Below are positions 24,510-46,063 of a stretch of DNA of 64,000 bases, piece by piece; position 1 is the first letter of the stretch; every line of letters begins with the position of its first letter. The notes under the pieces are model-generated. The model was not told the DNA's origin. It ran no database searches and saw nothing but the letters and a program-made list of their open reading frames with translations. Position numbers and translations under genes: made by a program. This DNA comes from Candidatus Thorarchaeota archaeon (lineage in GTDB: Archaea; Asgardarchaeota; Heimdallarchaeia; Hodarchaeales; Hodarchaeaceae), in assembly GCA_048882505.1 (NCBI GenBank), contig JBHLRO010000003.1, positions 15,157 through 79,156 of the forward strand, in the 5' to 3' direction.

Positions 24510-24787
24510 GAATTACCCATTCCCGAAAAATCTCAATCAAATAATTGGAATTTGCCTCGATTATGCCGTAACATTGACCTTAAGTGTAGGATTTGTTGAA
24601 GAATGGAGGAATGACCTAGTAGGATTGAAAGGATAGCAAATCGTCTCCAAATCCATTCTTTTGGGAGGATTATAAGACAGGATGAGCCCAACTTCGAGAA
24701 TCCCTCTTTAGAATCCGAGAAACGATAACCGATATAGTTACCTATATATGCAGTTATAGATCGCACGCCGCATCGAGATGAAATCCC

Positions 24788-25817: not shown

Positions 25818-25827
25818 GGGTGTTTTC

Positions 25828-29244: not shown

Positions 29245-30001
29245 TGGAGGCAAAACAATGATAGAAACAATTGTGGAAGATCCAGATTTTGTTGAGACAG
29301 AACCAATCCTCTATATCACAGATTTGCATAAACGTTATAATGAGGGAAAATCGAATGAAGTGCATGCTCTCCGTGGATTAGATCTAGAGGTAAAAAAGGG
29401 TGATATGATGGCGATAATGGGCCCTTCTGGATGCGGAAAAACGACCCTACTTAACATGATCGGGCATTTGGATGTCAGCTCAGGTGGGACCATTGTAATC
29501 AGTGGTATTGATACTGGGGAGCTTTCCGATCGTGAGATGACTGCATTTCGAAGAGATAACATCGGTTTCATATTTCAGCTCTTCAATTTATTCCCGTTCT
29601 TAACTGCGGTAGAGAATGTAGAAACTCCCTTATTATTAAAAGGCCTTAAATCAGGAGTCGCACGGGAACAGGCCAAAATGCTCCTGAGAGACTTAGGAAT
29701 GGGGGACAGACTATATCATTATCCCTTAGAGCTTTCAGGTGGACAACAACAACGAGTTGCAATCGCGCGTGCTTTGATTAATCAACCTGCAATTATTCTC
29801 GGTGACGAACCGACAGGAGATCTAGATAGTACCACAAGTGCAGTGATAATGGAACTTTTTCGCAGAATAAATATGATGAATAAACAGACATTTGTCCTGG
29901 TTACGCACAATCGGTGGATTGCTGAAAAATGTGATTACATTGTCCATATGACCGATGGGGTGATCTCCAACGTTGAATATGGACCTTTTGAGGAGGCCTA
30001 G
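29237..30001 (+). CDS. ABC transporter ATP-binding protein (MacB/LolD-type)
   Basis: Walker A GPSGCGKTT, Q-loop, signature LSGGQQQRVAIARAL, Walker B ILGDEPTGDLD, H-loop LVTHN; start overlaps permease stop by 8 nt. Confidence 0.9.
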   Translation: MDNGGKTMIETIVEDPDFVETEPILYITDLHKRYNEGKSNEVHALRGLDLEVKKGDMMAIMGPSGCGKTTLLNMIGHLDVSSGGTIVISGIDTGELSDREMTAFRRDNIGFIFQLFNLFPFLTAVENVETPLLLKGLKSGVAREQAKMLLRDLGMGDRLYHYPLELSGGQQQRVAIARALINQPAIILGDEPTGDLDSTTSAVIMELFRRINMMNKQTFVLVTHNRWIAEKCDYIVHMTDGVISNVEYGPFEEA

Positions 30002-30003
30002 CC

Positions 30004-32787
30004 ATGGTAAGAGTATACACTGCAGCCTTGATAGATAAACCTTTACGTGCCATTAATAAGAATTTACAGAAAAAGATGACTTCGGATTTGAGGAAATCTC
30101 TTAAGGTTCGGCGTGATGCAGTATCTAGTCAGGAGTTGAACACATTCCTCCTAGTTTCAGGCAAAAACGGAAAACGCGGATTCACCCCGGAAATGATAGA
30201 TAGGGTTGAAAAAGGAGCCATTCAGAAAAGACTAAAGCAATATTACAATAGAAATGAGTCACGATTTAGGAACTACATGAAAAACAATCAAGAGTTATAT
30301 GAAACCTCCCAGGTGGTAAAAGAATTCATCCGAGAGATTGATTCATCTCTTCCGAAAAAGTTCGACCAACAATTAAAGAAAATTAACACAGAATTACCGG
30401 AAATTTTCTGCCAGATTAGTATGAAGAGTTTTATTACTTTATGGGAGATTGAAGAAAGGCAGGAATATCGTTTTAACTTGTCCGGATTTGATTTTCCCAT
30501 ATTTGCCGGAACAACCAATGGAACCCCATTTAATGTAGGAAGTTTAGTAGATAAGCTTCTCATTGTAAATTTCTTTGAAACTTTCTTAAAATCAACCCTC
30601 CAGCGACTCGATGATATGAATCAGGTACTGGAACGTCTCGAATACGAACTTTCCAAGCCACACTATCAAATTAAGAACGAAAAACTACACGCCAAATTCT
30701 CTCTCTTTCTACGAATTCTGGTTGCAAAACTAAGCGCCTTACAGGAGTTAGAAAACTCGATCTTTCGGATCTTTAGTTTGTTTGATGTTCCATATATGAT
30801 CCTTACTCAATATCGTTTTAAAAGCGATTTTTTGGATTTAAATACAGAGATCGCCAGAATCTGCGAGGATATTAGTGTAGGTAAAGATAAACTCAACGAG
30901 GTAGGAAGAAAAATTGATAATTGCCAATTATCTCTTCGAGATTATCTTGATGAAAGTAGAAATGGAGTTATAAAGACTGATTCGACCCAATTATTCAAAG
31001 ATTCTCTGAAATCATTAGCAGAATTAAGTATTGATTTGTTTATAGAATCTGAAATGTTAAAACTTTGGTCGGATTATTTTGGATCAGATATTCCTTATTT
31101 TAGTTTTAATGTCCAATTAGATGAGGAAACTGAAAGCGAGGAGGATATCCACATCGATGATGATGTTATTTTGGCTGTGAGAGGGCTCTATAAGAACTAT
31201 AACCTTGGTCGTACCACCGTTTATGCAGTACGGGGAGTTAATCTCGATATTAAGGCAGGTGAATTTGTTGCAATAGTCGGCAGTTCCGGCGCAGGTAAGA
31301 CAACACTATTAAACTGTATGGCCAGTTTAGATACTCCGGATCATGGTGTCGTTTATTTTCGGGGGAGAAATCTTCACAAACTGAAAGATTCAGAGAAAGC
31401 AGACGTCCGACTTCGCGAAATGGGTTTCATTTTTCAGAGCTACGCCTTACTACCTCATTTCGACACTCGCGAAAATGTAACCCTCCCAGCAAATCTGGCA
31501 GGCGGATTAAGTAAAGGTATAAGAACCCGAATTGAGAATCTTTTGGTGGGTGTTGGAATAAGTGAACAGGCGAAACAATATCCTGCTCAGTTGAGCGGAG
31601 GTCAGATGCAACGGGTGGCAATTGCACGAGCTCTTACAAATCAACCGGCTGTCATATTTGCTGATGAACCCACAGGTGATCTGGATTCGACCACTGGTGT
31701 TCAAGTGATGGAATTGCTAAAGAAATTCCATGAGGAAACAAATACGACCATTGTAATCATAACACATGAGGAGAGTATTGCTAATTACGCTGAAAGGCGA
31801 ATTATGATGGAAGATGGAGTAATTACGCAGCGAAAAAGGCCCGTTGATCAAGCGGGACAGCCTATCCTGATGGAAAAGCCAATGATGCCGAAAGTTGAAA
31901 GGGAACTACCTCCAATATGGGAGGAAAGAGTAAACGAAATCGAAGGAAGGTTAGAGACCTTCGAGAAGAAAAACATTGAACTATTAGGCAAGGTAGTAAA
32001 AGAAGTACAAAGACAGTTGGACGAAATAAGGGGTAACATAGAAGTTCTTGGGATTGAGACCAACAAAAAATCGCTGGATCTGAGTACAAGATTTGAACAA
32101 CTAAATACTAATGCTAGCAATTGGTCATTTGCAATCAATGAACAGATGGAATCATTTCGTGCTCAATATGTTAAAGTGCTGGAAGAGCTCAGGCAATCTT
32201 CAATCAGATCGGCCGAAAAGGAAAGAATTCTTTCGCAAAAGTATACAGAACTCGTGGAACAATTAAAAGAAAAAGACCAGATAGCGGTTGAAAAAGGCAA
32301 TCTAAATCAAGTAAGGTTCAGTGCATTACAAAAGGAGATCGAAAGGAAGGAATCAGACTTAGGAATTTATAAGGATAGATTGGAGGAGCTGGAATCTGAA
32401 ATAAAGGTAAAACAGCAGCATATTGATGAATCTACTGAAATTAAAATGAAAACAGAAAACCTAGTAAATAGCTACAGAAAATTAAAGGAAGCTTATGATA
32501 ATAAGAGTCGGGAAGTGACTCATTTACAGGCTCAATTAGCATCCATGACTGAAGATACGAAGAAGATCGTTAAAAGTACCAGGGCTATAAAGGCATTCCT
32601 CGATGAGAGTGATTCAGGTCGAATCCTGTACCAACTTCTTAATTCTGAGCGTTTAAATCTAGATGAACTTGCGGTTCGGACTGGAATCGCAACATATACC
32701 GTTTACCAAATAGTTCAACACCTTCGAGATATTGGTGTAGTTGAGTTCGATAATTCCACACGCGTAGTTACATTAGTAAGCAAGTAA
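30004..32787 (+). CDS. ABC-type ATPase with about 390-aa N-terminal domain of unknown function and C-terminal coiled-coil plus wHTH-like tail
   Basis: Central Walker A GSSGAGKTT, signature LSGGQMQRVAIARAL, Walker B IFADEPTGDLD, H-loop ITHEE; C-terminal about 300 aa heptad-rich (E/K/L) ending in TGIATYTVYQIVQHLRDIGVVEF; starts 3 nt after upstream ATPase gene. Confidence 0.7.
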   Translation: MVRVYTAALIDKPLRAINKNLQKKMTSDLRKSLKVRRDAVSSQELNTFLLVSGKNGKRGFTPEMIDRVEKGAIQKRLKQYYNRNESRFRNYMKNNQELYETSQVVKEFIREIDSSLPKKFDQQLKKINTELPEIFCQISMKSFITLWEIEERQEYRFNLSGFDFPIFAGTTNGTPFNVGSLVDKLLIVNFFETFLKSTLQRLDDMNQVLERLEYELSKPHYQIKNEKLHAKFSLFLRILVAKLSALQELENSIFRIFSLFDVPYMILTQYRFKSDFLDLNTEIARICEDISVGKDKLNEVGRKIDNCQLSLRDYLDESRNGVIKTDSTQLFKDSLKSLAELSIDLFIESEMLKLWSDYFGSDIPYFSFNVQLDEETESEEDIHIDDDVILAVRGLYKNYNLGRTTVYAVRGVNLDIKAGEFVAIVGSSGAGKTTLLNCMASLDTPDHGVVYFRGRNLHKLKDSEKADVRLREMGFIFQSYALLPHFDTRENVTLPANLAGGLSKGIRTRIENLLVGVGISEQAKQYPAQLSGGQMQRVAIARALTNQPAVIFADEPTGDLDSTTGVQVMELLKKFHEETNTTIVIITHEESIANYAERRIMMEDGVITQRKRPVDQAGQPILMEKPMMPKVERELPPIWEERVNEIEGRLETFEKKNIELLGKVVKEVQRQLDEIRGNIEVLGIETNKKSLDLSTRFEQLNTNASNWSFAINEQMESFRAQYVKVLEELRQSSIRSAEKERILSQKYTELVEQLKEKDQIAVEKGNLNQVRFSALQKEIERKESDLGIYKDRLEELESEIKVKQQHIDESTEIKMKTENLVNSYRKLKEAYDNKSREVTHLQAQLASMTEDTKKIVKSTRAIKAFLDESDSGRILYQLLNSERLNLDELAVRTGIATYTVYQIVQHLRDIGVVEFDNSTRVVTLVSK

Positions 32788-33165
32788 AGGTCAAGGGTAA
32801 GACGTTACATATTGTCTGGTTAAATAATGGTTGTTTTCTTATTCTGAAAGTCAGTACAAGGTCAATCTGCTTCTTGACCAATAGATACATGATATCAAAA
32901 CGAGAAAAAGCTAGGTCTCTTATCATTCACTGTATTCTGGAAGAGTAAAAAGGAAGCAGATTAATCGTAAAGCAAGGTAATAATTCCTGGTACAAAATAG
33001 TAGAGTGGAAGGGAAGCTACAGTTATTCCTTCAATAATCCGCGATGCTTGTCCTGAGAAAATGTCGTTGATATGATGATTAGAACAAAGGAAACGACAAC
33101 GAAGACCAATGAAGAAGTGGCAAACACACTCCAATCTGGAAATGCCTATATAACTAAAGATTTTT

Positions 33166-33207
33166 TTGATCCTTTTGATTACAGAGCTATTATCAGGAGG
33201 TCTCTGA
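33166..33207 (+). promoter_or_regulatory. conserved upstream region with SD-like GGAGGT shared by duplicated acyltransferase genes (copy 1)
   Basis: aaagatttttttgatccttttgattacagagctattatcaggaggtctctgaATG is about 80% identical to 38716..38767; GGAGG 8-12 nt before ATG. Confidence 0.3.
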
Positions 33208-34026
33208 ATGACATCATCAGAAAATAATCTTGGAAATTATCATTTTACAGAATTTCCCATCAATCGACAGATCCTTAGTGACCTCTATGATGAATTTCTA
33301 AAAAAACATTATTCCATAGGTTACCTTGAAGTGACTGTTTCCAAAGCTTTGGAATTGATAAACAAATTGACAAAGAAGACTGGGGAAAAAATTTCTTTCA
33401 CGGCTTGGGTTGTTAAGTGCATCAGTGATGCTATCCTTCAGTTTCCAGAGTTTAACTCTTATCGAAAGGGGAGAAACAGGCTAGTAACGTTTGAGGACAT
33501 TGATATTATCGTTATGGTGGAACGTCAGTTAGTTGAAAAATTCATTCCAGTTCCTTATTCGATTCGAAAAACTACAAAGAAAGATTTACTAGCCATTTCA
33601 AGGGAAATTAGGACAGCACAAAATATGGAAGTAACTGAGAAAAATCAGCTTCTTGATCAAGGGATCCTTACCAGATTATATCCGCTTATTCCAGGGATTA
33701 TTAAACGACGCCTGATTAGACGTATTCTTCGAAACCCTTTTTCTATAAAAAAACAAGGAGGGTTAATCGTAGTTACCTCGGTTGGTATGTTCACTAATAC
33801 TCGTGGATGGGTAGGTGGATTCGGCGGGATAACTACCCTCAATTTTGCAATTGGTGGGATCACTCAAAAACTCGTTAAATCTGGTGATTCTATCAAGGAA
33901 GAACAATGTTTACAGATGACCATATCTCTCGACCACGATATTATTGATGGGGGTCCTGCGGCTCGTTTTTCAGCATATCTAGTCGATTTACTTGAAAAGG
34001 CTAGTGGTTTGACTGGACTGATGTAA
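33208..34026 (+). CDS. stand-alone 2-oxoacid dehydrogenase E2-type acyltransferase catalytic domain protein (CAT-like fold)
   Basis: C-terminal GGLIVVTSVGMF...ISLDHDIIDGGPAARF matches the E2 catalytic core (SNLGMFG...DHRxxDG) with catalytic His/Asp present; no lipoyl or E3-binding domains. Confidence 0.7.
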   Translation: MTSSENNLGNYHFTEFPINRQILSDLYDEFLKKHYSIGYLEVTVSKALELINKLTKKTGEKISFTAWVVKCISDAILQFPEFNSYRKGRNRLVTFEDIDIIVMVERQLVEKFIPVPYSIRKTTKKDLLAISREIRTAQNMEVTEKNQLLDQGILTRLYPLIPGIIKRRLIRRILRNPFSIKKQGGLIVVTSVGMFTNTRGWVGGFGGITTLNFAIGGITQKLVKSGDSIKEEQCLQMTISLDHDIIDGGPAARFSAYLVDLLEKASGLTGLM

Positions 34027-34199
34027 CATGAAATCCCATACCTTCATCCGCTTAACTTTATCTTGAGGTATTTGTCCAGATACCTGATTCCAGAAAAACT
34101 GTCATTGAAAAATCACAGGATTTAAACATTTCAATTAATATACGGTGACATTGATCTACCAATATAGACAATGCATAATAGGCAAAAAGAGGTGGCACC

Positions 34200-34565
34200 A
34201 TGGTTGAAGTAGAAATAATGCTTAGTTTCTTATGGGTCTCCATAATGTTTTGTTATTTATATGGGGATGTGTTTTCCATACTGGCTGGGGATTTTAAACC
34301 TGGCGAAATAGATGGAAAACCATTAACTGAGTACATGGTTCTAGGAATGGCCGTGATAATAACAATTCCAATTACTATGATCGTCCTAACTTTAATATTG
34401 GATTACTCAATCAGTCGCTGGGCAAACATTATCGTTTCTCTTGGGTATATTATTTTTAATGTATTATCCCTTAGGAGTTATCCAATCTATGAAAAATTTA
34501 CTTTAGTTGTTTCGATGGTATTTAATGTAATAGTAGTCTATCTTGCATTCACTTGGGCAATCTAA
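34200..34565 (+). CDS. small 3-4 TM membrane protein, paralog of 45755..46063
   Basis: Shared motif YLYGDVFSILAGDFKPGEIDGKPL...LDYSISRWANIIV with 45755..46063 (YLFGDVMRLYAGDFTPGEIDGKPL...LDYAVNRWANIII). Confidence 0.45.
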   Translation: MVEVEIMLSFLWVSIMFCYLYGDVFSILAGDFKPGEIDGKPLTEYMVLGMAVIITIPITMIVLTLILDYSISRWANIIVSLGYIIFNVLSLRSYPIYEKFTLVVSMVFNVIVVYLAFTWAI

Positions 34566-34570
34566 GGATT

Positions 34571-35242
34571 TCAGAAGAATTCAGATAATGTTGTTTTAGG
34601 GTTCTTCTTTTTTGCGGGTTTTATTGTGGTCGGCCCATTATCCCCCTTGCTCGGCAGCGTATCAACAATCCAACTATTCATTTCTCCCTCATACGGTTTA
34701 AGGATCGCTAATAACTGCTCTTGAGTTTTCTCATAATTAAGCCAAAAATCGACTTGTTTTTTATTGAAAATGACTGGCATCCTATGAAAAACCTTTTCAA
34801 CAACGGGATGAGGATCAGTTGTTAAAACTGCACATTTATACCTCATCCTGCTCTCCTCTTCATCGAAATAAGAATTATAAATCCCAGCAATTCCGAATAA
34901 AGGCTCGTTTTTTAACGAAAAGTAGTATGGGATTCTTTCTTTACCGACGCGTTCCCATTCAAAAAAACCGTTTGCAAGAATAACACAACGTTTTTCCACA
35001 AAGGCTTTCCTGAAAAGCTTTTTTTCATGAACCGTTTCACTTCGAGCTTTATATGATTGAAAACCTTTTGTATAACCCCAATACATTCGAACTAGTTTGT
35101 AACCTTCCTCATTTACAATTGCAGTTGCTCTGTTTGTTGGTTTAAGATTGTAATAAGGAAAAACCTCAAGATTCCCTGGAGAAACGCCAAATGTAGACTC
35201 AATTTCATCTTTTGACGAAAAAAAGGCGAATCTTGAAGGCAT
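34571..35242 (-). CDS. SRAP (SOS-response associated peptidase, YedK/HMCES-like) homolog with Pro at position 2
   Basis: MPSRFA...YNLKP...WGY...KARSET...ILANGFFEWE...PYYF...HHRMPVIF parallels YedK MCGRFA...YNVAP...WGY...NARVET...FADGWFEWK...HDRRPLVL; start codon ATG confirmed, codon 2 is CCT (Pro), in-frame stop 6 codons upstream. Confidence 0.65.
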   Translation of the reverse strand: MPSRFAFFSSKDEIESTFGVSPGNLEVFPYYNLKPTNRATAIVNEEGYKLVRMYWGYTKGFQSYKARSETVHEKKLFRKAFVEKRCVILANGFFEWERVGKERIPYYFSLKNEPLFGIAGIYNSYFDEEESRMRYKCAVLTTDPHPVVEKVFHRMPVIFNKKQVDFWLNYEKTQEQLLAILKPYEGEMNSWIVDTLPSKGDNGPTTIKPAKKKNPKTTLSEFF

Positions 35243-35425
35243 AAGATTCGATTTGGTACCTGTTTTAAAAAAAATGTTTTACGAAGCTTAAAATGGGGAA
35301 CTCGTTGAGGATGCCTGAATTTTAACTGGAGAGGATAAGTCATCTGCCCAAAGAACATTGATGGAGATACAATTACTTTTCGGAAAGCGGGATCTGGAGA
35401 TATTCCGTCCCTCATAAATGTTTAC

Positions 35426-36244
35426 ATGGAGTCGCTAACCGATTTGGAAACAAGAATGAATGTTTCTCCTTCTCTACCGTCTAAATCAGAGACGGAGCAA
35501 TTTTATCAGCATGCTATGTCAAGTGGCGACTTTTTTGTAGCAATTGCTGATAAAAAGATTATCGGATTCAGCGGGGCTATTATCCGAGACAGATTATGGT
35601 TTTTATCGGCCTTTTGGGTTCTCCCTTCTTTTCAAAAAAGCGGTATTGGCCTTTCTCTTCTTGAACGCGTTTTTGAAAAAGGTATCAGTCGTGGTGCATC
35701 AGTTTTCTGTGTTTATTCTTCTAGTGATTTTCCAGCATTAGCATCTTACATGAAAATGGGTATGTTTCCTGGCTACCCAGTTTTTTATTTTGAGGGAATT
35801 CCGAAAATAGCATCCTTTTCGAGAGCTAATTCACATCGATCTGAGGAATTACAGGAGGAAGTAGCAACAGAACTAGATTTAGAAATTCGAGGGGTTAATA
35901 GATTGACGGATCATAGATATTGGAAATTGTTGGGATCAAGGGCGGTTCAAATTGAAATAGAAGGTAAAATCGGAGGATACTACTATGTTAGAAAAGGATT
36001 CATTGGTCCGCTGGTAAGTAAACAGTCCAAAGACATTGAATTATTACTTAATTTAGCTATGAAAGATGCTTTGGATTTAACTCCGAATAAGATAATCAAA
36101 TTGAGGGTTCCAGGTATCAATCATCATGCCCTAAAATGGATTCTGAAAACTGGACTAAAAATCAGGTCGACATCGCACTTTTTGACATCAAAAGAGTTTG
36201 GAAAACTTGCTTGTTATCTTCCTTCAGATCCTGGCCTATATTGA
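35426..36244 (+). CDS. GNAT-family N-acetyltransferase
   Basis: Motif A-like FQKSGIGLSLLERVF; 272 aa with C-terminal extension. Confidence 0.5.
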   Translation: MESLTDLETRMNVSPSLPSKSETEQFYQHAMSSGDFFVAIADKKIIGFSGAIIRDRLWFLSAFWVLPSFQKSGIGLSLLERVFEKGISRGASVFCVYSSSDFPALASYMKMGMFPGYPVFYFEGIPKIASFSRANSHRSEELQEEVATELDLEIRGVNRLTDHRYWKLLGSRAVQIEIEGKIGGYYYVRKGFIGPLVSKQSKDIELLLNLAMKDALDLTPNKIIKLRVPGINHHALKWILKTGLKIRSTSHFLTSKEFGKLACYLPSDPGLY

Positions 36245-36261
36245 TTGATTGATTAGGTGGT

Positions 36262-37128
36262 TTGATAGATATGAAGTTGAAGGGATTTGAAAAGTTACAG
36301 CAGAAATTGCCGGGATATAGCGGCAAGAGGTTTGTCATTATACCACTCATCGGGTTTGTCTCTTTTATTTCCAGCTTTTTCATTTTGCTACTGAGCTATT
36401 GGATGCCCACCCTTCTTCCCGATAATGAACTACTTGGTCTGGCTGAACCAATATTACCTATTGCTGGTCAGGTGATCATATTAACCATTGGGTTTTTCCT
36501 AATCGCGCGAGTATGGAATAGAAGACGGTTACTACTCAAAAAACATAAGGAATTAGCATATGAGCGAGGAGTCATTTCAGGATTCATTGGCGTACCTTTG
36601 GTACTTGCAACGGCATTCCACAGTTTGTTCCCGATAGCTTTTTCGTGGGAACCAATAAATCCAACTACTGCTCAAATGTTCTTTTCACCATTCAGATCTA
36701 ACTTGATTTTATCGATTATTTTATTACTTATTGGGTCCATCCTAGTTCTAATTGGATTATTGACCTTTCGGAGAGCAATTTTGACTTTTGGAATCGATTA
36801 TATGGCGGTTATATACGTTTATTACCCAGAAGAGTCAGAACTTCAGGATCATCAAATTTACTCTATCCTGAGGCATCCAACGTATTTTGCTATCATTTTG
36901 ACTGCCGTAGGTGGATGGCTGGTAAACTTCTCGGTGTATTCATTCATTGCGATGTTGCTCGTTATCCTCGGTATACTCATCCATCTTCGGTTTGTTGAAG
37001 AAAAGGAGCTTTTAGAACGGTTTGAATCATTTCGAGAATATAGACAACAGGTTCCAGCATTTATCATCAAACCTAGTCAAATTGTACCTTTTTTCAGATT
37101 TATCTTAGGCCAGGAAAACGCTCAATAG
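36262..37128 (+). CDS. ICMT/PEMT-like membrane methyltransferase (isoprenylcysteine carboxyl methyltransferase family)
   Basis: C-terminal RHPTYFA...VEEKELLERFESFREYRQQVP matches the ICMT signature (RHPxY...EE..L...FG..Y..Y); several N-terminal TM helices. Confidence 0.55.
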   Translation: MIDMKLKGFEKLQQKLPGYSGKRFVIIPLIGFVSFISSFFILLLSYWMPTLLPDNELLGLAEPILPIAGQVIILTIGFFLIARVWNRRRLLLKKHKELAYERGVISGFIGVPLVLATAFHSLFPIAFSWEPINPTTAQMFFSPFRSNLILSIILLLIGSILVLIGLLTFRRAILTFGIDYMAVIYVYYPEESELQDHQIYSILRHPTYFAIILTAVGGWLVNFSVYSFIAMLLVILGILIHLRFVEEKELLERFESFREYRQQVPAFIIKPSQIVPFFRFILGQENAQ

Positions 37129-37195
37129 GAGTAACTATAACCTCTTTCTCATTTAATTCTAAAATTTCTACTAATTCAAATGGAAAGCGAGGAAC

Positions 37196-37471
37196 TTGTC
37201 AAACTATCCACAAAATAAGGAAGAATGGCAAGTAGCAATATACGCTGGAGTAGGTTTAACTAAATTGGAGGGGGAGAGGAAATACCAAACTCAGAATTTC
37301 CCTTATTTGAAGGTGGAAGAATGGATTCAGAAATCGTTTAGTGAAGGATTTCACCCTGATTTTGTTCCAGCATTACTTAGAAACATACAGGGATTGGTCG
37401 CATGGGTTTATGGGGGAAAGGAAGAACCAAATTGGTCGCAATCTGATGAAGAGATCGATTATCAAGAATAA
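37196..37471 (+). CDS. hypothetical small protein
   Basis: 91 aa ORF in the gap between methyltransferase and aminotransferase genes; no motif recognised. Confidence 0.25.
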   Translation: MSNYPQNKEEWQVAIYAGVGLTKLEGERKYQTQNFPYLKVEEWIQKSFSEGFHPDFVPALLRNIQGLVAWVYGGKEEPNWSQSDEEIDYQE

Positions 37472-37498
37472 ATACAAAAAAACTCCAATCAGATATTA

Positions 37499-38701
37499 TC
37501 AGTCCAGAAGCGAGTCTTCAAGGGCATTCGTAATACGCTGAAGTCCACCTTCGAGTTCTGTGTAACTGGGATATCCGAAGCCCAACCGCAGAAATCTTTT
37601 CCCTACTTCAAACCAATAACCTGGGGCAACGAATGTCCTGTATTTTTCTTTCAAAACCATATAAAACTTGTCAATATCTATGTTAACGGTCTCTCTAATC
37701 CTCGGAATACAAACACACCCCCCTTGAGGTTCAACCCATTCTAAAAGTTCATTCTTTTCAAGCCAGCCCTTTAAAAGTTTATAATTGGTATTGACATGAG
37801 ACTGAATATCCTCCAAAAACTGGGTTTTCTTGTTAATATAGAAATGAGCGGCGATGGCTTCATCAATGATAGAATTACATATATAAATCAATTCCTTGGC
37901 TGCCAAGAATCTTTCCATCAATGCGGGATCTTGATTGACCAACCACCCGGATCTGATTCCAGGTAATCCATAGGCCTTAGAAAAAGAAGACACACTAATA
38001 GCTTGGGGACTTAATGACGCTGCCATTGGAGGAGGATCATTGGTCATATCCCTGTAGGTTTCATCTAAGAGTAAATGACACCCTTTGGATTCTACCAGTA
38101 CAATAATTTCATCTAATTCAGATTTCGTTAAAACAGTACCAGTAGGGTTTTGTGGGTAAGTGAGACTGACAAGTCGAGTATTTGGTTTAATCAGCTGAGA
38201 AAGTTTTTCTAGGTCTAATTTGAATTGTTCTTCAAATGATAAGGCCAAGTAGTCAACCTGACATCCGATTGCCCGAGGTGTTTCTACATTAGCTGTATAA
38301 TTAGGGTGTAGAAGTACTACATGGTCACTTGGTTTCAGTAAAGAAGTGTAGATGATAAAGAGGGCTCCAGCAGCCCCTGTGCCAATTAGAACATCATCAG
38401 GTTTAATTCCCTCTCCTTCGCTGGATATTGAAAGACGTAATTCTGGATTTCCAAGATGATCACCGTACCTAAGTAAAATGTTATTTAGATCGATATCTAG
38501 GTCTCCAAATACTGCGTCAGGTACAGAACTTTCTGCCAAATTATACTGAATCCTTTCATAACCATACTCTTCCGGAGATTCCTTTTCAATAGGGGTTCTT
38601 CGGTAAGCTAGGTGTCCTTGACTGATTTCTTTACCTGATATATCAGTACTTACCATATCATTCACAAACCAACCTAATTTACGAATGGAATATTTAGGCA
38701 A
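37499..38701 (-). CDS. PLP-dependent aminotransferase, class I/II fold
   Basis: 400 aa; PLP-lysine context SFSKAYGLPGIRSGW, upstream Asp/Tyr and Asn motifs typical of fold-type I aminotransferases. Confidence 0.8.
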   Translation of the reverse strand: MPKYSIRKLGWFVNDMVSTDISGKEISQGHLAYRRTPIEKESPEEYGYERIQYNLAESSVPDAVFGDLDIDLNNILLRYGDHLGNPELRLSISSEGEGIKPDDVLIGTGAAGALFIIYTSLLKPSDHVVLLHPNYTANVETPRAIGCQVDYLALSFEEQFKLDLEKLSQLIKPNTRLVSLTYPQNPTGTVLTKSELDEIIVLVESKGCHLLLDETYRDMTNDPPPMAASLSPQAISVSSFSKAYGLPGIRSGWLVNQDPALMERFLAAKELIYICNSIIDEAIAAHFYINKKTQFLEDIQSHVNTNYKLLKGWLEKNELLEWVEPQGGCVCIPRIRETVNIDIDKFYMVLKEKYRTFVAPGYWFEVGKRFLRLGFGYPSYTELEGGLQRITNALEDSLLD

Positions 38702-38715
38702 ATGTCTATTTAATT

Positions 38716-38767
38716 AAAGATCTTTTCGATCCTTTTGAGTCCAGAGTAATCATCTGGAGGTTACTGA
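38716..38767 (+). promoter_or_regulatory. conserved upstream region with SD-like GGAGGT (copy 2)
   Basis: taaagatcttttcgatccttttgagtccagagtaatcatctggaggttactgaATG; paralogous to 33166..33207. Confidence 0.3.
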
Positions 38768-39586
38768 ATGTCACCATCAAAAGACAATCTTGGAAATTAC
38801 CATCTAACCGAGTTTCCCACCAATCGCCAAATCCTTAGTGACCTTTATGATGAATTTCTAAAGAAGCATTATTCCATTGGTTACATTGAGGTGACTGTTT
38901 CCAAGGCTAACGAATTGATAAACAAGTTCCTAGAGAAGACAGGAGAAAAAATTTCTTTCACCGCTTGGATCGTTAAGTGTATCAGTGATGCCGTCGTTCA
39001 GTTCCCAGAATTTAATTCTTATCGAAAGGAGAGAAACAAGCTTGTCACGTTTGAGGATATTGATATTATTGTTATGGTGGAACAGCAGTTACCTGACAAA
39101 GTTGTTCCGATCCCTTATTCTATTCGAAAAACTACAAATAAAAATCTATTAACCATTTCTAAAGAAATTAGGACAACACAAAGTATGGAAGTAACTGAGG
39201 AACATCAGCTACTTGATCAGGGAATCCTTATCAAATTATATCCATTAATTCCAGCATTTATTCGACAACGACTGATAAGACGTAAGATTCGAGATCCTTT
39301 TACCATTAAAAAACAGGGAGGATTAATTGTGGTCACCTCCGTTGGTATGTTTATCAATACTCGGGGGTGGGTGGGAGGATTTGGCGGGATAACTACCCTA
39401 AATTTTGTAATTGGTGGAATCACGAAAAAATTCGTTAAATCTGGTGATTCGATCAAGGAAGAACAACTTCTACAGATGAGCATTTATCTTGACCATGATA
39501 TTATTGATGGGGCTCCAACGGCTCGTTTTTCGGCGTATCTAGTCGATTTACTGGAGAATGCAAATGGTTTAACTGAACTGATCTAG
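38768..39586 (+). CDS. stand-alone E2-type acyltransferase catalytic domain protein, paralog of 33208..34026
   Basis: 272 aa, collinear with 33208..34026 over its full length (GGLIVVTSVGMF...YLDHDIIDGAPTARF). Confidence 0.7.
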   Translation: MSPSKDNLGNYHLTEFPTNRQILSDLYDEFLKKHYSIGYIEVTVSKANELINKFLEKTGEKISFTAWIVKCISDAVVQFPEFNSYRKERNKLVTFEDIDIIVMVEQQLPDKVVPIPYSIRKTTNKNLLTISKEIRTTQSMEVTEEHQLLDQGILIKLYPLIPAFIRQRLIRRKIRDPFTIKKQGGLIVVTSVGMFINTRGWVGGFGGITTLNFVIGGITKKFVKSGDSIKEEQLLQMSIYLDHDIIDGAPTARFSAYLVDLLENANGLTELI

Positions 39587-39863
39587 CGAATTCAAATTTC
39601 TTTAAACAAACGTATCAAGTATGGTTTTAGTAAATGGAGAATCCGATATCTCTCCTACATCTGCGAATCCTGAAAAAAAACGTAATGTATCCGAATTTGC
39701 CAGTAGAATTATCATTAATTCCATTTTTGGAATCTTAATATACATAAAGAAATAGAATTATCACCAAACCCAAATTAACGTTTGTTATCACACATCCATA
39801 ATATTAGATATGAATTTGAATCGATTAATAATTGCTCTCTGCACATTAGAGGTTTCGTTGCTT

Positions 39864-40547
39864 TTATTTCTGTGTCTTAATGCCAAATGGTACCAATAAT
39901 GGTGTGTGTATCTTATATTCAAGGTAGTTCTCACCAAAGCGAATTTCCAGCTCTTTTTCTTCATAAACTTTTAGAAAAAATATCCAGACCGGTACCACAA
40001 GAGTAAGAACCCACAATAGAAACCCCGCAGATTGGAAAAATAACGCTAAGGAGACTAAAAATAGGAGAATGGCTAAGACCATGGGATTGCGCGTTCGAGC
40101 ATACAACCAATCGCTTACAAGATATCTACTATTAGCAATCAAAGCGAATGGAGCCCCTAATCCTCTTAGTGCCAAATAAACCACTGTAAGCAAAGTGAAA
40201 ACACCGCTTATACTAAGAAGAATAAAACTTATCTCCTTAGGAAATGGTATAATAACTCCCTTCCAACTTTCAGCAGACAAAATAGCTCGTATAATGCCTG
40301 CTCCAAGACAAATCATGATAGAAAAATGAATTGTCATATTTAACCAGAAAGTGTGTTTAGCTGTTGGATATTTATTGAGGATGAATCGCCCTACAGAAGA
40401 AATTGGAGCAACAGCAACCACACCCCCTATTATTATGAATGCGTCAGTCATAAGATCAAATTGCTGGTCGAAAAACCATCTCCAAATTATGAAGACAAGT
40501 ATCAGGCTTAGAAATCGAATTATAGACGAGATTATAGGAGATCTCAT
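39864..40547 (-). CDS. ICMT/PEMT-like membrane methyltransferase paralog
   Basis: RTRNPMVLAILLF...VYEEKELEIRFGENYLEYKIHTP matches the ICMT C-terminal signature; 5-6 TM helices. Confidence 0.55.
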   Translation of the reverse strand: MRSPIISSIIRFLSLILVFIIWRWFFDQQFDLMTDAFIIIGGVVAVAPISSVGRFILNKYPTAKHTFWLNMTIHFSIMICLGAGIIRAILSAESWKGVIIPFPKEISFILLSISGVFTLLTVVYLALRGLGAPFALIANSRYLVSDWLYARTRNPMVLAILLFLVSLALFFQSAGFLLWVLTLVVPVWIFFLKVYEEKELEIRFGENYLEYKIHTPLLVPFGIKTQK

Positions 40548-40613
40548 AATATTTTCCTGAATCTGTCGTTAACCATTTGTTATATCAATACAATGCCGTA
40601 ATTTAGAAAGATA

Positions 40614-41597
40614 TTGGATAGGATCATTATAGTGGGAAAAGATAAGTACTCAAATGTTCGCTATATCAGTTTGTTGTGGCTAAGTTTGGAACAGTCTTAT
40701 GTTTGTGAAGTTTGTGGCGAAAAAAACAGTACTAACTTCTCGTACTGTCGGACCTGTGGGGCTGAACTACTCTTAATGGAGAAGACACTCCAACAATCAC
40801 GGATGCCTAGTACACTAGATATATCAAATTTTGATTCCACTGAAGAGGATTTGATCTTCCCAGATCAAAAGTGCTGGAAATGTGAGAAGACTGTGAATCC
40901 AGATTCCCCGTTTCTGAATTTTTGCTCTGAAACTTGTAGCAACATTTATTCTCCATCTGAACTACAGCCTGAACACGTATATCGAATATACAGAAAGACA
41001 AAGGGCAAACGAGAATATAGGATTAATGATATGGACAATCGAGAATTCATGAGGGCGATAAGTGAAAAGAGAGGACTTACTACCTTTAAAATACAAGATC
41101 AAAATGGATTACCATTAGGAGAGATTAGAAGAGGTGGGACTTCTTCCTCCCGACATAATTACTCCTCGGATTGGCCTTTCGATTTGGATGTTTTAGGACG
41201 GTCAGAGGAGTTTCAGGTACGGGTGAAACGTGATAACACTCTTCCCAGTTGGGGCGAGATAAAAACTCCGTTGAAAACTTACACTGCTAAATTTAATAGA
41301 AAATTAATTGGGGTTAATTATGTTATTGGGCCTTTTAACCAGTCTGTTAGAACAGAAGGAAATATCAATGATTTGGATGGTAATCGTTACCTTACAATTG
41401 TCTGGGAGGATTGGGAAGATTCCCAAACAAAATCTCTATCAGAATTTAAGAATTTAAAATGGTATACTTATCGACTTGATTGCTATAAATTTTCAAGTAA
41501 ATTCCTTACTTTCGCTGTATCAGTGTGTCTTATTGAAAGGTTCATAAGCAACTTTGGAGATTTAGCTGCCGAACGGAAACCCATTCAAGATTTTTGA
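40614..41597 (+). CDS. zinc-ribbon-containing protein, unknown function
   Basis: N-terminal CEVCGEK...CRTCGAEL (C-x2-C...C-x2-C) and second CWKCEK...CSETCS cluster; rest without recognised motif. Confidence 0.4.
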   Translation: MDRIIIVGKDKYSNVRYISLLWLSLEQSYVCEVCGEKNSTNFSYCRTCGAELLLMEKTLQQSRMPSTLDISNFDSTEEDLIFPDQKCWKCEKTVNPDSPFLNFCSETCSNIYSPSELQPEHVYRIYRKTKGKREYRINDMDNREFMRAISEKRGLTTFKIQDQNGLPLGEIRRGGTSSSRHNYSSDWPFDLDVLGRSEEFQVRVKRDNTLPSWGEIKTPLKTYTAKFNRKLIGVNYVIGPFNQSVRTEGNINDLDGNRYLTIVWEDWEDSQTKSLSEFKNLKWYTYRLDCYKFSSKFLTFAVSVCLIERFISNFGDLAAERKPIQDF

Positions 41598-41904
41598 CTT
41601 TATTCCTTCTGCAAATCCCAGATTAACTTTAGAGATTTATCTTCCGATTGGAAATTCCCCTTAGTGTAAACAAGTTTTAAGATAGATAATCGCAAACATA
41701 GTAATGGATAGATGATTTAGCATTAAGGTCTTCAAACGTGGATTATAATTGTTAAAGCTGGCTTTTATGATTTTTAACTAAGCTCATTCATGATACGTAA
41801 AAAAGATAAGATATCTTGAATTTTTCTGTGCAAGTTGGATTTACATTATGGAATCATATCAATTCTTTCTGAATAATATCTTTGGGAACACCTTCCAAGC
41901 CATG

Positions 41905-42474
41905 CTAGACTTCCCAGATTGCAGATAAATTACACTTCAATTCAGAATATCTGTCTCTTAACCGTTCATTCAATGTTTCCATCTCCTCCTTAACAATTAC
42001 AATCCATTTGAGTAATGATTCTAAAATGATCAAATCACGTTTAGCTTTGTCTAATTTTTTGGATTCTGAACTTAAGGTGCTTTTCCAGTGATCCCTAATA
42101 TTGATTAGCATATCATGTCTGTCAGGTAGGTTTTTGCTAAAATTAGTTAATTGATTGGTGAGTAATTCTAAAAATGTAGTTGGTTCGACATTATACTCCC
42201 ATTCTAAAGAGCCAGGTTGGCGTTTTCTTCTGATTAAACCTAGATTTTCCAATTCTTTTACAATTCTACTGATAGTAGAGGGGTTAACTTTAAATTTCTT
42301 AATAAGACTTCTTTGGGTGATAATCTTTTTAGAGGTGTTAATAACACACAATCCATAGATACGACCTAGTAGAGGAGAATTACCACTGTCATACATGACA
42401 TCTTCGAAGAAATTCATCATTTCTTCCTCAATATTTAAAATTTCATCAAAATTACCCTTACTTCGTGCATTCAA
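41905..42474 (-). CDS. wHTH transcriptional regulator (MarR/GbsR-like, tentative)
   Basis: IYGLCVINTSKKIITQRSLIKKFKVNPSTISRIVKELENLGLIRRKR resembles a winged HTH; C-terminal coiled segment. Confidence 0.4.
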   Translation of the reverse strand: MNARSKGNFDEILNIEEEMMNFFEDVMYDSGNSPLLGRIYGLCVINTSKKIITQRSLIKKFKVNPSTISRIVKELENLGLIRRKRQPGSLEWEYNVEPTTFLELLTNQLTNFSKNLPDRHDMLINIRDHWKSTLSSESKKLDKAKRDLIILESLLKWIVIVKEEMETLNERLRDRYSELKCNLSAIWEV

Positions 42475-42599
42475 GGCATTTCACACGTTGAAAAATTTCT
42501 TTCCAATAGAAATATAAATTTATTGCAATTACTGGGAATTGAGGTTCTTGCAAGAATCTTGCAAAAACAAGGAATTGCAAAAAAATTTCTTGGTGATAA

Positions 42600-42869
42600 A
42601 TGATGGAAAATGTGCTGTTAAAATCTGAAGATAAAAGATCCCGTTCTGAAATTGTTACATTCCTGAACGAAATCGCAATGAAAATTGATAGTGGTATGGT
42701 TAAGTTAGTACAGGGAGAACAGAGCTTAGAACTAGAAATTCCAGAGAATCTGACCCTTGAAATCAAAGTTGAAGAAAAAATAAAACCTAACCATCCTAAA
42801 AAGATGCAATTAGAAATTGAATTAGAATGGTATGAAGGAGACAAGCGCGAATCTATACAACTTGGATGA
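42600..42869 (+). CDS. small acidic protein, amphi-Trp-like (tentative)
   Basis: 89 aa; alternating EIxLEI pattern ending LEIELEWYEGD; divergent from HTH gene 41905..42474. Confidence 0.3.
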   Translation: MMENVLLKSEDKRSRSEIVTFLNEIAMKIDSGMVKLVQGEQSLELEIPENLTLEIKVEEKIKPNHPKKMQLEIELEWYEGDKRESIQLG

Positions 42870-43401
42870 ATTTATTTTATGCGTATCAGCATTCTAATTG
42901 AAGAATTAAGGCAGGACATAAACAATCGGTCTAGACTCACAAAAAGTATAACCGATGTTTCAATTTTCCTCCCTTTAATCTTTTTTTAATACCTCAAGTA
43001 AGGTTTTTTTCACATATTATGTTACTTCCAAACGTCTTCAAACAGTAATTTTACGACATGATGCATTAAAAACTGAGACTATATTATTGGTCTTCTTCAA
43101 TTCTATTTGATAATGCATTTTTTAGCATGGAAACTGGTTAATCTCGAGGGATAAGTAAAATATTACCTAAAAACTCGAAATTTTATTAGGAGACAAGATA
43201 ACGTTCCTGCTAGGAGATTTCACGAAAAAATTTTAGGTTAATTAGATTTTCTTATTCATTAATATCGCTTGGATGTGATTTGAGCTGAAAGAAGTAACAA
43301 AAAGTGAAGAAAAGACGGTAGAAGCGAATAATATAAACATCACTTACGATACATTCGGAAATCCAAGTAATCCAGCATTATTACTCATAGGGGGGTTAGG
43401 G

Positions 43402-44187: not shown

Positions 44188-44410
44188 TTTTCGCATCCTC
44201 CAGCTGACTAAAAAGAAGGAAGTTAGTTTAATGCCGAGCTGGTGAAGGTTACTAGGTCAGTTCGTAGTTTAGCTAGGGAGAGTTAATGGATATTCATCAT
44301 ATGCCCAGCATGATAATACGTTAAGGAAATATTTCCACGTAGGCTAGAATCTAGTCCCAAATGATTTAATGTATATTCAGTTCTGAAAAACGGAGTTGCC
44401 AAATCAAAAA

Positions 44411-45754: not shown

Positions 45755-46063
45755 ATGGAAGATGCAAGAATAATACTGTCGGGATTATGGATCTCGGTTA
45801 TGTTGGTCTATCTGTTTGGAGATGTAATGCGACTATATGCTGGCGATTTCACCCCTGGAGAAATTGATGGCAAACCTTTGAGCCGAGGAATGTTGATAGC
45901 AATGGCAATAATCATGTTACCCCCAATTTTTATGGTTTTCCTATCCTTGACCTTGGATTATGCTGTGAATCGATGGGCAAATATCATTATAGCCGCGTTC
46001 TATTTTTCTTCAATCTTGTGGGTCTTCGTACATATCCAGGTGCTTATGATAGATTTTTGTTGA
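45755..46063 (+). CDS. small membrane protein, paralog of 34200..34565
   Basis: See 34200..34565; shared GDxxxxxAGDFxPGEIDGKPL and LDYxxxRWANII motifs. Confidence 0.45.
   Translation: MEDARIILSGLWISVMLVYLFGDVMRLYAGDFTPGEIDGKPLSRGMLIAMAIIMLPPIFMVFLSLTLDYAVNRWANIIIAAFYFSSILWVFVHIQVLMIDFC

Follow-up and report, generated by a model that had tools for sequence, protein, structure and literature searches.

Two closely similar genes for an E2-like acyltransferase lie near each other on a contig of an Asgard archaeon, which raises the question of how the pair arose, what kind of enzyme it encodes and whether the genes around it serve the same function. The window, meaning the whole stretch of 64,000 nt that we analysed, had been interpreted in a sequence-only reading as carrying a segmental duplication within a putative cluster for small-molecule modification. 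The two genes are:

33208..34026, + strand: copy A, E2-like acyltransferase of 272 aa (ORF of 272 codons), the derived copy
38768..39586, + strand: copy B, E2-like acyltransferase of 272 aa (PF00198, E 4e-18), the parental locus

Alignment of both copies defined a repeat unit of 889 nt with 83.0 % identity and without a single gap (33138..34026 versus 38698..39586), and a repeat search of the window also recovered this pair, 5560 nt apart. The proposal of collinear paralogs at roughly 80 % nucleotide identity was therefore confirmed. The gene-sized duplication is real, but the unit is slightly longer than the assumed 860 bp, and instead of about 40 bp upstream of the ATG the copies share exactly 70 nt (80 % identity). 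Beyond position -70 and directly past the stop codon the likeness falls to chance level (1-3 matches per 10 nt). The ORFs are free of indels and reach 83.3 % nucleotide identity in the coding sequence and 81 % identity (219/272) in the protein. Most of the substitutions are located at third codon positions (34/23/80), and the estimates of dS (0.58), dN (0.10) and dN/dS (0.18) characterize the pair as an old duplication under purifying selection. Because the divergence is even along the unit (73-90 % identity per 60 nt) and no exact run of at least 25 nt occurs, nothing points to recent gene conversion. The copies are separated by 4.7 kb of unique genes, and neither flanking repeats nor genes of mobile elements were detected around the pair.

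The upstream part of the unit contains the following elements:

33138..33207, + strand: upstream region of copy A, common to copy B, 70 nt (80 % identity to 38698-38767)
33146-33153, + strand: TATA-like element CTATATAA of copy A (motif and position)
33168-33177, + strand: fully conserved GATCCTTTTG in the upstream region of copy A (alignment)
33196-33201, + strand: Shine-Dalgarno motif GGAGGT of copy A (motif and position)
38698..38767, + strand: upstream region of copy B, 70 nt, in the divergent intergenic region shared with an aminotransferase gene
38706-38713, + strand: TATA-like element CTATTTAA of copy B (motif and position)
38756-38761, + strand: GGAGGT of copy B (motif and position)

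As the host is an Asgard archaeon, the co-duplicated piece reads as a putative TATA-like box followed by a Shine-Dalgarno motif, in line with the earlier suggestion that promoter and ribosome-binding site were duplicated together. In both copies, CTATATAA or CTATTTAA is placed at -62 and GGAGGT at -12, while two other genes of the window with a Shine-Dalgarno motif have TATA-like boxes at -49. An Rfam search of the upstream region of copy A matched no family. Given the purifying selection on both copies, they are probably expressed from equivalent promoters and functional.

Between and beside the copies, Pfam agrees with the neighbours that had been named from the sequence, i.e. a GNAT protein, two ICMT-like methyltransferases, an aminotransferase and a small membrane protein family with a paralogue:

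34200..34565, + strand: small membrane protein DUF6326, downstream of copy A (PF19851, E 1e-10)
34571..35242, - strand: SRAP (SOS-response-associated peptidase) family gene (PF02586, E 7e-46)
35426..36244, + strand: GNAT-family N-acetyltransferase, 272 aa (PF00583, E 2e-11)
36262..37128, + strand: PEMT/ICMT-like membrane methyltransferase, 288 aa (PF04191, E 6e-10)
37499..38701, - strand: class I/II PLP aminotransferase, divergent from copy B (PF00155, E 1e-40)
38575..38697, no strand given: 5' coding end of the aminotransferase plus intergenic DNA, part of the original unit, in the window only at the parent locus (match in L001)
39864..40547, - strand: second PEMT/ICMT-like membrane methyltransferase, 227 aa, convergent with copy B (PF04191, E 2e-5)
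45755..46119, + strand: DUF6326 paralogue, frameshifted near 46000 (54 % identical over 83 aa)
36708..41790, no strand given: segment of 5.1 kb, present here and absent from the sister genome L001 (blastn synteny and junction alignment)

The interval also holds the SRAP gene, a 91-aa ORF and a Zn-ribbon protein, all of which had been left out of the earlier description. The two PEMT/ICMT-like proteins are only distantly related (32 % over 74 aa), and the C-terminal 38 aa of the DUF6326 paralogue resume in the +2 frame (46003-46119). The aminotransferase is PRK07324/GntC/VioD-like, but stays below all curated cut-offs (NCBIfam, 220 bits versus 415-476); comparison of its N-terminus with L086 places the true start probably at a conserved Met at about 38656.

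To trace the history of the pair, we turned to related assemblies. An orthologue of copy A with the same flanks is present in two independent assemblies (L001, L002), and an orthologue of copy B lies beside the same divergent aminotransferase in a third one (L086); copy B is in addition 100 % identical to a public protein (P0005). The best homologues come from Heimdall, Hod and Loki MAGs, which identifies the host as a Heimdall/Hodarchaeales-like Asgard archaeon. Collinear copies, similarity beyond the ORF, coding-type divergence and the independent confirmation of each copy demonstrate an intragenomic duplication of a gene together with its promoter.

The direction of the event is recorded in the sister genome. 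Upstream of the copy-A orthologue, positions 9810-9933 of L001 align to 38575-38698 of the window, which identifies them as a degenerate 5' end of the aminotransferase. The translation of this relic, KEISQGSLT*RTIPIEQES, contains a stop and corresponds to KEISQGHLAYRRTPIEKES, whereas the aminotransferase start is intact in L086 at the orthologue of copy B. This relic marks copy B as the parent locus and sets the size of the original unit to at least 1.0 kb. We propose that copy A originated from the copy-B locus, at which the E2-like gene and the aminotransferase gene stand head-to-head: a piece of at least 1.0 kb was duplicated from there and inserted between an ABC-exporter operon and the DUF6326 gene. 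It would have run from the aminotransferase, with the first ~27-42 codons included, through the divergent intergenic region carrying TATA-like box and Shine-Dalgarno motif and across the whole E2-like ORF. In the genome studied here, the upstream part at copy A has remained recognisable over the proximal 70 nt only; the sister genome has kept the aminotransferase relic, but later lost copy B together with 5 kb around it. Indeed, synteny with L001 breaks at 36707/41791 with a TGAT(A) microhomology at the junction. The 3' half of one PEMT-like gene (reducing the 288-aa protein to 153 aa), the aminotransferase, copy B, the second PEMT-like gene and the Zn-ribbon gene were lost, and copy A was retained.

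These data establish the duplication, its direction and its age relative to speciation, with the order of duplication and lineage splits being only partly settled by the tree. In a neighbour-joining tree, copy A (winA) groups with P0001 at 94 % bootstrap and copy B (winB) with P0002 from L086 at 82 %, but the sister relation of both clades reaches only 46 %, and P0002 is as close to A as it is to B (85 % each). The pairwise dS between A and B (0.58) is similar to that between A and L001 (0.49) and falls into the range of the flanking orthologues (0.26-0.77).

Could the pair have arisen in another way? The window stems from a metagenome-assembled genome, so that strain variants might have been stitched into one contig by assembly or binning. 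Such an artefact can practically be dismissed, as each copy has its own orthologue with its own flanks in independent assemblies; moreover, the copies are 17 % divergent with coding-type substitutions at a dN/dS of 0.18 and enclose 4.7 kb of unique genes. Alternatively, recombination with a related Asgard strain that had the aminotransferase-E2 arrangement might have brought in copy A, which would then not be a product of duplication in this lineage. DNA exchange between these lineages is evident from the mosaic of dS values against L001 (0.02 in a MarR block, 0.26-0.77 in its neighbours), and the low bootstrap of the A/B grouping would also fit. Nevertheless, we consider an import unlikely: A and B share the 70-nt upstream region, have equal length without indels and fall together into one tight clade whose sequences are 80-87 % identical, and an aminotransferase-linked copy is most simply derived from the locus 5.5 kb away. 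A duplication within this lineage followed by differential loss matches the known pattern in its collinear copies with control region, in the purifying selection on both, in the relic of a neighbouring gene at the daughter locus and in the microhomology deletion in the sister genome. It is ordinary gene-family turnover and nothing unusual.

To learn about the function of the protein, we analysed its domain composition and fold. PF00198 scored above the cut-off and was the sole Pfam domain, a profile search against solved E2 cores gave an E-value of 6e-21, and the predicted structure is a single domain. The E2/CAT fold, which a negative HMM result would have called into question, was thereby upheld, as was the description as a catalytic domain with an intact DHDIIDG motif and no lipoyl or E3-binding domain. 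Among 36 diverse family members, D242, H243, D247 and G248 are invariant and T190 is nearly so; the alignment to 3mae and 4n72 agrees with the catalytic motif DHxxxDG and the F-T-I-[ST]-[NS]-x-G strand. From what is known of E2 enzymes, we take H243 and the Asp and Ser/Thr positions to be the catalytic residues. Fold, conserved catalytic motif and the absence of accessory domains are thus established. One part of the protein has no counterpart of similar size in solved cores: opposite profile positions ~141-181, 3mae has 7 residues. Within this insertion, P162 is invariant and residues 165-184 have a hydrophobic moment of 0.63-0.75 and a net charge of +6 to +8; it was modelled with lower confidence (pLDDT 77-88).

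Each protein is a complete E2-fold catalytic domain and, as is the case for other E2/CAT enzymes, most likely assembles as a trimer. Its predicted reaction is the transfer of an acyl group from a thioester of CoA (the presumed donor) or phosphopantetheine to a nucleophile, with His243 as general base, Asp247 holding the loop and Thr190/Ser191 stabilising the tetrahedral intermediate. The acceptor is most likely a free small molecule or lipid and not a lipoyl arm of the protein's own, since lipoyl and E3-binding domains are missing, no E1 or E3 is encoded nearby and the family is equally short in changing contexts. The family-specific helical insertion of ~30-35 residues, in which an amphipathic helix of strongly basic character is predicted, probably either alters the shape of the entrance for the acceptor or attaches the protein to a membrane or polyanion.

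The comparison with characterized systems points in the same direction. With the E2 core of 2-oxoacid dehydrogenases (PF00198; PDB 7b9k, 3mae, 1dpc, 3rqc) the protein shares catalytic domain and fold, but at only 15-20 % identity; it lacks lipoyl and E3/E1-binding domains, carries the extra helical and basic insertion, and its gene stands alone in variable contexts without E1/E3 genes nearby. The E2 domain of OdhA and the reduced AceF trimer (PDB 8p5t, 6zzi-6zzn) are likewise lipoyl-less, but in OdhA this domain is fused to E1o and needs the lipoyl domains of AceF, whereas here it is free-standing with no partner in the window or related loci. Type A CAT (PDB 6x7q, 2i9d) is a member of the same superfamily and also a small, free-standing, acyl-CoA-dependent transferase with a free small-molecule acceptor, encoded by a lone gene in variable contexts, and therefore serves as our working analogy. 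Neither CAT family models nor the nearest structural neighbour assigned the protein to CAT itself.

By analogy to OdhA, which borrows the lipoyl domains of AceF, the proteins might still be true E2 components whose lipoyl carrier and E1/E3 are encoded by separate genes at other places in the genome. This is improbable in our view. Pfam and the single-domain model revealed no lipoyl domain (PF00364) in the 272-aa protein and Pfam no peripheral-subunit (E1/E3) binding domain (PF02817); E1, E3, lipoyl and PSBD domains were absent from the 40 window ORFs scanned, and in 80 related loci E1/E3/lipoyl were not found among the genes that recur nearby or lie next to the E2-like gene. The scores are far below every curated NCBIfam equivalog for the E2 of PDH, OGDH or BCKDH (at best 52.4 bits versus a cut-off of 445 for TIGR01349, others lower), and the insertion is missing from solved E2 cores. 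Besides, many hosts of the family (Syntrophomonas, Anaerolineales, Thermoplasmatota and Asgard MAGs) are anaerobes that would be expected to rely on ferredoxin-dependent oxoacid oxidoreductases, as is usual for organisms of their kinds.

A further reading unites the E2-like pair, the GNAT protein, both ICMT/PEMT-like proteins, the aminotransferase and DUF6326 in one locus for acylation and methylation of a membrane-associated or secreted small molecule or lipid. Every named domain is present, and the divergent aminotransferase/E2 pair is common to the window and L086. An ICMT/PEMT-like gene is located at most 2 kb from an E2-like gene in four distant lineages (L005, L071, L018 and, weakly, L054; distances for L018 and L054 were read by hand from gene coordinates), two more are 5 kb off in L029 (one encoding a 38 % identical homologue of the 288-aa protein), and L005 has an Acyl_transf_3 gene, a class-I methyltransferase and an aminotransferase within 6 kb. 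Class-I SAM methyltransferases are also the commonest immediately adjacent family (5 of 115 genes). Still, the genes in the window have mixed orientation and separate intergenic regions, with an SRAP gene among them that is a DNA repair gene unrelated to small-molecule modification. The deletion in L001 spared copy A, although it took away the aminotransferase, copy B and the functional domains of both methyltransferases. Relatives at 80-85 % identity adjoin WD40/PIN, gelsolin/radical-SAM or luciferase-like genes. Outside the window, an E2-like gene has DUF6326, GNAT and SRAP as neighbours only in L001 and L002, near-identical relatives that alone preserve DUF6326 downstream of copy A, and the aminotransferase only in L086; next to the 80 other loci, DUF6326, GNAT and aminotransferase are never found. 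ICMT/PEMT recurs in 6 of ~75 loci, numbers too small for significance, with 4 ICMT genes in 251 kb (up to 2 kb away) versus 3 in 633 kb further out and no genome-wide background. The recurrence of methyltransferases near E2-like genes is thus a weak echo and suggestive only; in 80 further loci the E2-like gene has no regular, conserved partner, and a cluster in the sense of a conserved unit finds no support. We therefore regard a single functional locus as unlikely. Instead, the evidence favours, with good though not full confidence, two paralogues from one old gene-sized duplication that encode stand-alone E2-fold acyltransferases with a probably free acceptor.

The pair belongs to a large family with more than 544 loci in one-genome-per-species contigs and at least 628 clusters at 50 % identity (E<=1e-10), almost all of 255-290 aa. 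Its members are spread over Asgard archaea, Thermoplasmatota, Bacillota, Chloroflexota, Spirochaetota and others. It is conceivable, but tentative, that these ~270-aa proteins represent distinct, uncharacterised, free-standing acyl-thioester transferases outside the 2-oxoacid dehydrogenase complex, with the basic insertion serving a membrane or small-molecule acceptor often in company with SAM-dependent (including ICMT/PEMT-like) methyltransferases and occasionally fused to surface-protein-like domains or placed behind a PKS. If so, Asgard archaea would possess a new acyl-modification chemistry, and the two paralogues would represent two specificities within it.

Taken together, the locus provides a clean and datable duplication in an Asgard genome, in which the parent locus is distinguishable from the daughter, the promoter travelled with the gene and the sister lineage lost the parent copy. 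It also draws attention to a phylogenetically scattered group of E2 catalytic domains without any feature tying them to 2-oxoacid dehydrogenase complexes. The public label "2-oxo acid dehydrogenase subunit E2" is likely to lead metabolic reconstructions of Asgard archaea and other anaerobes astray, for instance by suggesting that a pyruvate dehydrogenase complex is present, and the substrate of the family, once found, would give the CAT/E2 acyltransferase superfamily a new branch.

The two E2-like acyltransferase genes in the window are 272-codon ORFs in the ORF listing and align at the DNA level without a single indel within the ORFs. Identity amounts to 83.3% for the coding sequence and 81% (219/272) for the protein.

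The duplicated pair and the TATA-like octamers of its leaders (window coordinates)
33146-33153, TATA-like octamer of copy A, at -62: CTATATAA, by motif only
33208..34026 (+), E2-like copy A
38706-38713, TATA-like octamer of copy B, at -62: CTATTTAA, by motif only
38768..39586 (+), E2-like copy B

Upstream of the start codon, the copies match at 8, 7, 7, 10, 8, 8 and 8 positions per 10 nt in ungapped comparison back to -70; past this point similarity drops to 1-3 matches per 10 nt, and 3' of the stop codon it is at chance level at once. The repeat unit in the window spans 33138..34026 versus 38698..39586, which is 889 nt at 83.0% identity with a spacing of 5560 nt. This alignment bears out the coordinates and the identity of about 80% proposed in a sequence-only reading of this DNA, but extends the shared upstream region from its roughly 40 nt to 70 nt. 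Substitutions are distributed as 34/23/80 over codon positions 1/2/3, with a dS of 0.58, a dN of 0.10 and a dN/dS of 0.18 (Nei-Gojobori). Recent gene conversion between the copies was ruled out, because the divergence is even (73% to 90% identity per 60-nt window) and exact runs of 25 nt or more are absent. A repeat search found no direct or inverted repeats or mobile-element signatures flanking the copies. The ORF at 35426..36244, considered as a third E2-like paralogue for its equal length (272 aa), is a GNAT according to Pfam.

The source of the window is clearly an Asgard archaeon of the Heimdall/Hodarchaeales neighbourhood. All best homologues belong to Asgard MAGs that carry Heimdall-, Hod-, Thor-, Promethe- or Lokiarchaeota labels, Lokiarchaeum ossiferum among them. 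Window 23154..44405 is collinear, at a nucleotide identity of 77-98%, with the sister genome L001, whose MAG is labelled "Heimdallarchaeota". The submitters' taxon labels clash among sequences that are 80-100% identical (P0005, L001, P0008: Thorarchaeota, Heimdallarchaeota and Hodarchaeota). Given this host, the earlier proposal of a co-duplicated promoter and RBS has to be read in archaeal terms: the shared upstream region with its GGAGGT (at -12 in both copies) stands, while its extent is 70 nt and the promoter part becomes a putative archaeal TATA-like box. Between the two, GATCCTTTTG at -40 is fully conserved in both copies. These assignments are by motif only; two further window genes that carry an SD-like motif have TATA-like boxes at -49. 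No Rfam family matched the 70-nt leader, and the only two matches over 32700-41700 were weak and outside of it. The window contains no tRNAs.

That the duplication is real, and not the assembly artefact it might have been, follows from the divergence pattern and from counterparts of each copy in independent assemblies. The copy-A orthologue P0001 (87% identical to A, 79% to B) was found in the near relatives L001 and L002, flanked by ABC-transporter and DUF6326 genes as at copy A. P0002, 85% identical to copy B, is located in L086, where the divergent aminotransferase start matches that of copy B. In addition, copy B is matched at 100% identity by the public protein P0005.

Traces of the history of the pair are preserved in the sister genome. 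The A orthologue of L001 is preceded, ahead of the shared 70 nt, by 124 nt (9810-9933) that match window 38575-38698, the flank of copy B, and not the window's copy-A flank. The minus strand of this stretch translates as KEISQGSLT*RTIPIEQES versus KEISQGHLAYRRTPIEKES at the aminotransferase N-terminus, of which L086 carries an intact version. With its internal stop, the stretch is a relic of the aminotransferase. From this relic it follows that the duplicated segment originally extended into the aminotransferase, at least 193 nt upstream of the ATG, giving a unit of at least 1.0 kb; that copy B occupies the parent locus and copy A is its daughter; and that the lineage of the window later replaced or lost the far end of the upstream region of the daughter. 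Pairwise dS is 0.58 for A-B and 0.49 for A-L001; these similar values lie within the spread of flanking orthologues (0.26-0.77), which would probably place the duplication not long before these lineages split. In a neighbor-joining tree with 200 bootstraps, copy A groups with P0001 (94%) and copy B with P0002 (82%). The sister grouping of A and B receives a support of only 46% and P0002 is equidistant from both copies. We consider it improbable that copy A was imported from a close relative instead of arising by duplication in this lineage. Duplication recurs in the E2-like family, as tandem pairs in L061, L066 and L046 demonstrate. Gene-family duplication is also common in this stretch of the genome, with paralogous NAD-synthase-domain proteins at 7037-7960(+) and 8125-9084(-) and M42 aminopeptidases at 9138-10217(-) and 11352-12431(-).

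Copy B itself is missing from L001. Collinearity ends at window 36707 and resumes at 41791, with a TGAT(A) microhomology at the junction and the 288-aa PEMT-like gene reduced to a stump of 153 aa. Since the distant genome L029 encodes a full-length homologue of this protein (38% identity), the 5.1-kb difference is a deletion in L001 and not an insertion in the window. It removed the methyltransferase domain of this first PEMT-like gene, a 91-aa ORF, the aminotransferase, copy B, the second PEMT-like gene and a Zn-ribbon gene. Starting exactly at the deletion junction, a 1.27-kb block (window 41791-43059, L001 13560-14827) with a MarR-like gene (41905-42474, -) and an Amphi-Trp gene (42600-42869, +) is 98.3% identical. 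The MarR dS between window and L001 is 0.02, compared to 0.26-0.77 for neighbouring orthologues. The block looks like the product of a recent DNA exchange between both lineages, and this exchange may also have been what deleted copy B from L001.

At the protein level, the view of an E2/CAT-like catalytic domain without lipoyl or E3-binding domains is confirmed: PF00198 is the sole Pfam domain in both copies (70 and 66 bits, cut-off 23), and Pfam detected no lipoyl or peripheral-subunit-binding domain. Matches to NCBIfam E2 equivalogs are far under their cut-offs (e.g. 52 versus 445 bits), and none of the 40 window ORFs scanned contains an E1, E3 or lipoyl domain. With an AlphaFold2 model built from a 36-sequence alignment (pLDDT 88, pTM 0.86), each of the top 50 Foldseek hits is an E2 catalytic core (E about 1e-17, TM 0.7-0.8). 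D242, H243, D247, G248, P250 and R253 are invariant in 36 diverse members and T190 is nearly so, which corresponds to the E2 DHxxxDG motif and the Ser/Thr of the preceding strand; which of these positions is catalytic is presumed by analogy with E2 enzymes. Searching the PDB with a profile gave two aligned blocks (E 6e-21 to 3mae), between which about 40 profile positions (141-181) oppose 7 residues of this solved E2. In the predicted model, they correspond to a helical insertion, about 30-35 residues long and specific to the family, with helices at 153-160, 163-175 and 177-183 (pLDDT 77-88). P162 in this insertion is invariant, and the insertion also includes an amphipathic, strongly basic stretch (hydrophobic moment 0.63-0.75, net charge +6 to +8). 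Like the E2 component of 2-oxoacid dehydrogenases, both copies are predicted E2/CAT-type acyltransferases, but the accessory domains and the E1/E3 linkage are absent here. Of the six testable features that define an E2 component, both copies lack four: the lipoyl domain, the peripheral-subunit-binding domain, a score at equivalog level and a linkage to E1/E3.

The family is widespread. A one-genome-per-species scan yielded more than 544 confirmed loci among the matches listed, with hosts from Asgard archaea, Thermoplasmatota, Bathyarchaeia, Bacillota, Chloroflexota, Spirochaetota, Bacteroidota, Actinomycetota and others. When 1.84 billion representatives were searched exhaustively with HMMER, 628 clusters were recovered at E<=1e-10, nearly all of 255-290 aa. 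For conserved partners, ORFs were called in 82 loci and analyzed by three approaches, none of which revealed a conserved operon partner. A BLAST search with the window neighbours in 80 loci recovered DUF6326, SRAP and GNAT in L001/L002 only, a single 24% match to the aminotransferase 5 kb off, and the 288-aa PEMT-like protein in L029 only. De novo clustering of 1139 neighbouring ORFs showed no recurrence except for generic ABC ATPases, class-I methyltransferases, SDRs, Zn-ADHs and enoyl-CoA hydratases, each cluster in at most 13 of about 72 loci. Among 115 adjacent genes, the top Pfam families were class-I methyltransferases (5), DSHCT helicase (4, which is synteny among Thermoplasmatales), GNAT (3) and ICMT (2). 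A linkage to MacB-type ABC exporters (L001, L002, L029, L062, L064, L084) was judged to be the background frequency of a common family. Relatives at 80-85% identity adjoin WD40/PIN (L083), gelsolin and radical-SAM (L084) or luciferase-like oxidoreductase (L086) genes; these unrelated contexts indicate that the E2-like gene behaves as a lone, relocatable gene.

These results bear on the earlier idea that the two copies, the GNAT, both PEMT/ICMT-like genes, the aminotransferase and DUF6326 form one acyl/methyl modification cluster. A PEMT/ICMT HMM detected seven genes in six of about 75 unrelated loci, four of them less than 2 kb from the E2-like gene (in 251 kb) and three farther out (in 633 kb), although these counts are small and compare near with far within loci, not genome-wide.

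PEMT/ICMT genes near E2-like genes (distances in L018 and L054 read by hand from gene coordinates)
L071, 33 nt, divergent
L005, 261 nt, divergent
L018, about 1.5 kb
L054, about 0.85 kb, weak match

The closest functional echo is suggestive: in L005 (7812-16281), a distant Heimdall MAG, a 41% identical E2-like gene has the ICMT-like gene as divergent neighbour and, within 6 kb, an Acyl_transf_3 membrane acyltransferase, a class-I SAM methyltransferase and a class I/II aminotransferase; the region also includes an asparaginase. On the other hand, the 5.1-kb deletion leaves L001 with copy A but without its proposed aminotransferase and methyltransferase partners, and the co-occurrence check over 80 loci gave no conserved partner. 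We therefore regard a single modification cluster as unlikely and favour the lone, relocatable gene. The two PEMT/ICMT-like genes are not a second duplicated pair (identity only 32% over 74 aa), and PADLOC identified no anti-phage defence system among the interval genes, apart from a trivial PLP-fold similarity of the aminotransferase.

Regarding individual neighbours, the aminotransferase (37499-38701, -) has PRK07324, GntC (guanitoxin cyclodehydratase) and VioD (capreomycidine synthase) as best NCBIfam matches, all at about half of the curated cut-off. The listed TTG start at 38701 probably lies upstream of the true one; a Met at about 38656 is conserved in L086. The reading frame of the DUF6326 paralogue (45755-46119) shifts near 46000, where there is a T-rich run: the called ORF, 45755..46063, terminates in unrelated residues, and the +2 frame of 46003-46119 encodes the missing C-terminus FFFNLVGLRTYPGAYDRFLLIISLGFNIITVWCAWSWV, in agreement with the other paralogue. 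Either the gene is a pseudogene or the shift stems from a sequencing error.

Two rare contexts elsewhere concern possible substrates. In L023, a Bacillota MAG (3481-10792), the gene of a polyketide-type synthase of 2153 aa, FAAL(AMP-binding)-KS-DH-KR-ACP, ends 26 nt before the E2-like gene, and the enzyme of this genome may off-load or tailor a carrier-bound acyl chain. In the Thermoplasmatales loci L031 (1065-5154), L064 (6691-10795) and L051 (6716-10813), a protein of about 1085 aa with carboxypeptidase-regulatory-like (CarboxypepD_reg) or prealbumin-like domains precedes the E2-like gene by 26-35 nt. In L051 and in P0146 (1348 aa) both share a single reading frame, which may be a fusion to a surface-protein-like partner.

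We propose that each paralogue would act as a free-standing, probably trimeric acyltransferase that, by the His-Asp mechanism of E2/CAT enzymes, takes an acyl group from the thioester of CoA or phosphopantetheine and passes it on to a free nucleophile. The insertion could be part of the acceptor entrance or a docking surface for membranes or polyanions. The L023 and Thermoplasmatales contexts are consistent with a thioester donor and varied acceptors. The duplication is a known kind of event, and the family is already annotated, yet uncharacterised: public records name its members generically only, and we found no description of the stand-alone proteins in the searchable full-text literature. 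Stand-alone E2-like proteins should not be counted as evidence for a 2-oxoacid dehydrogenase complex, and the family itself merits biochemical attention.
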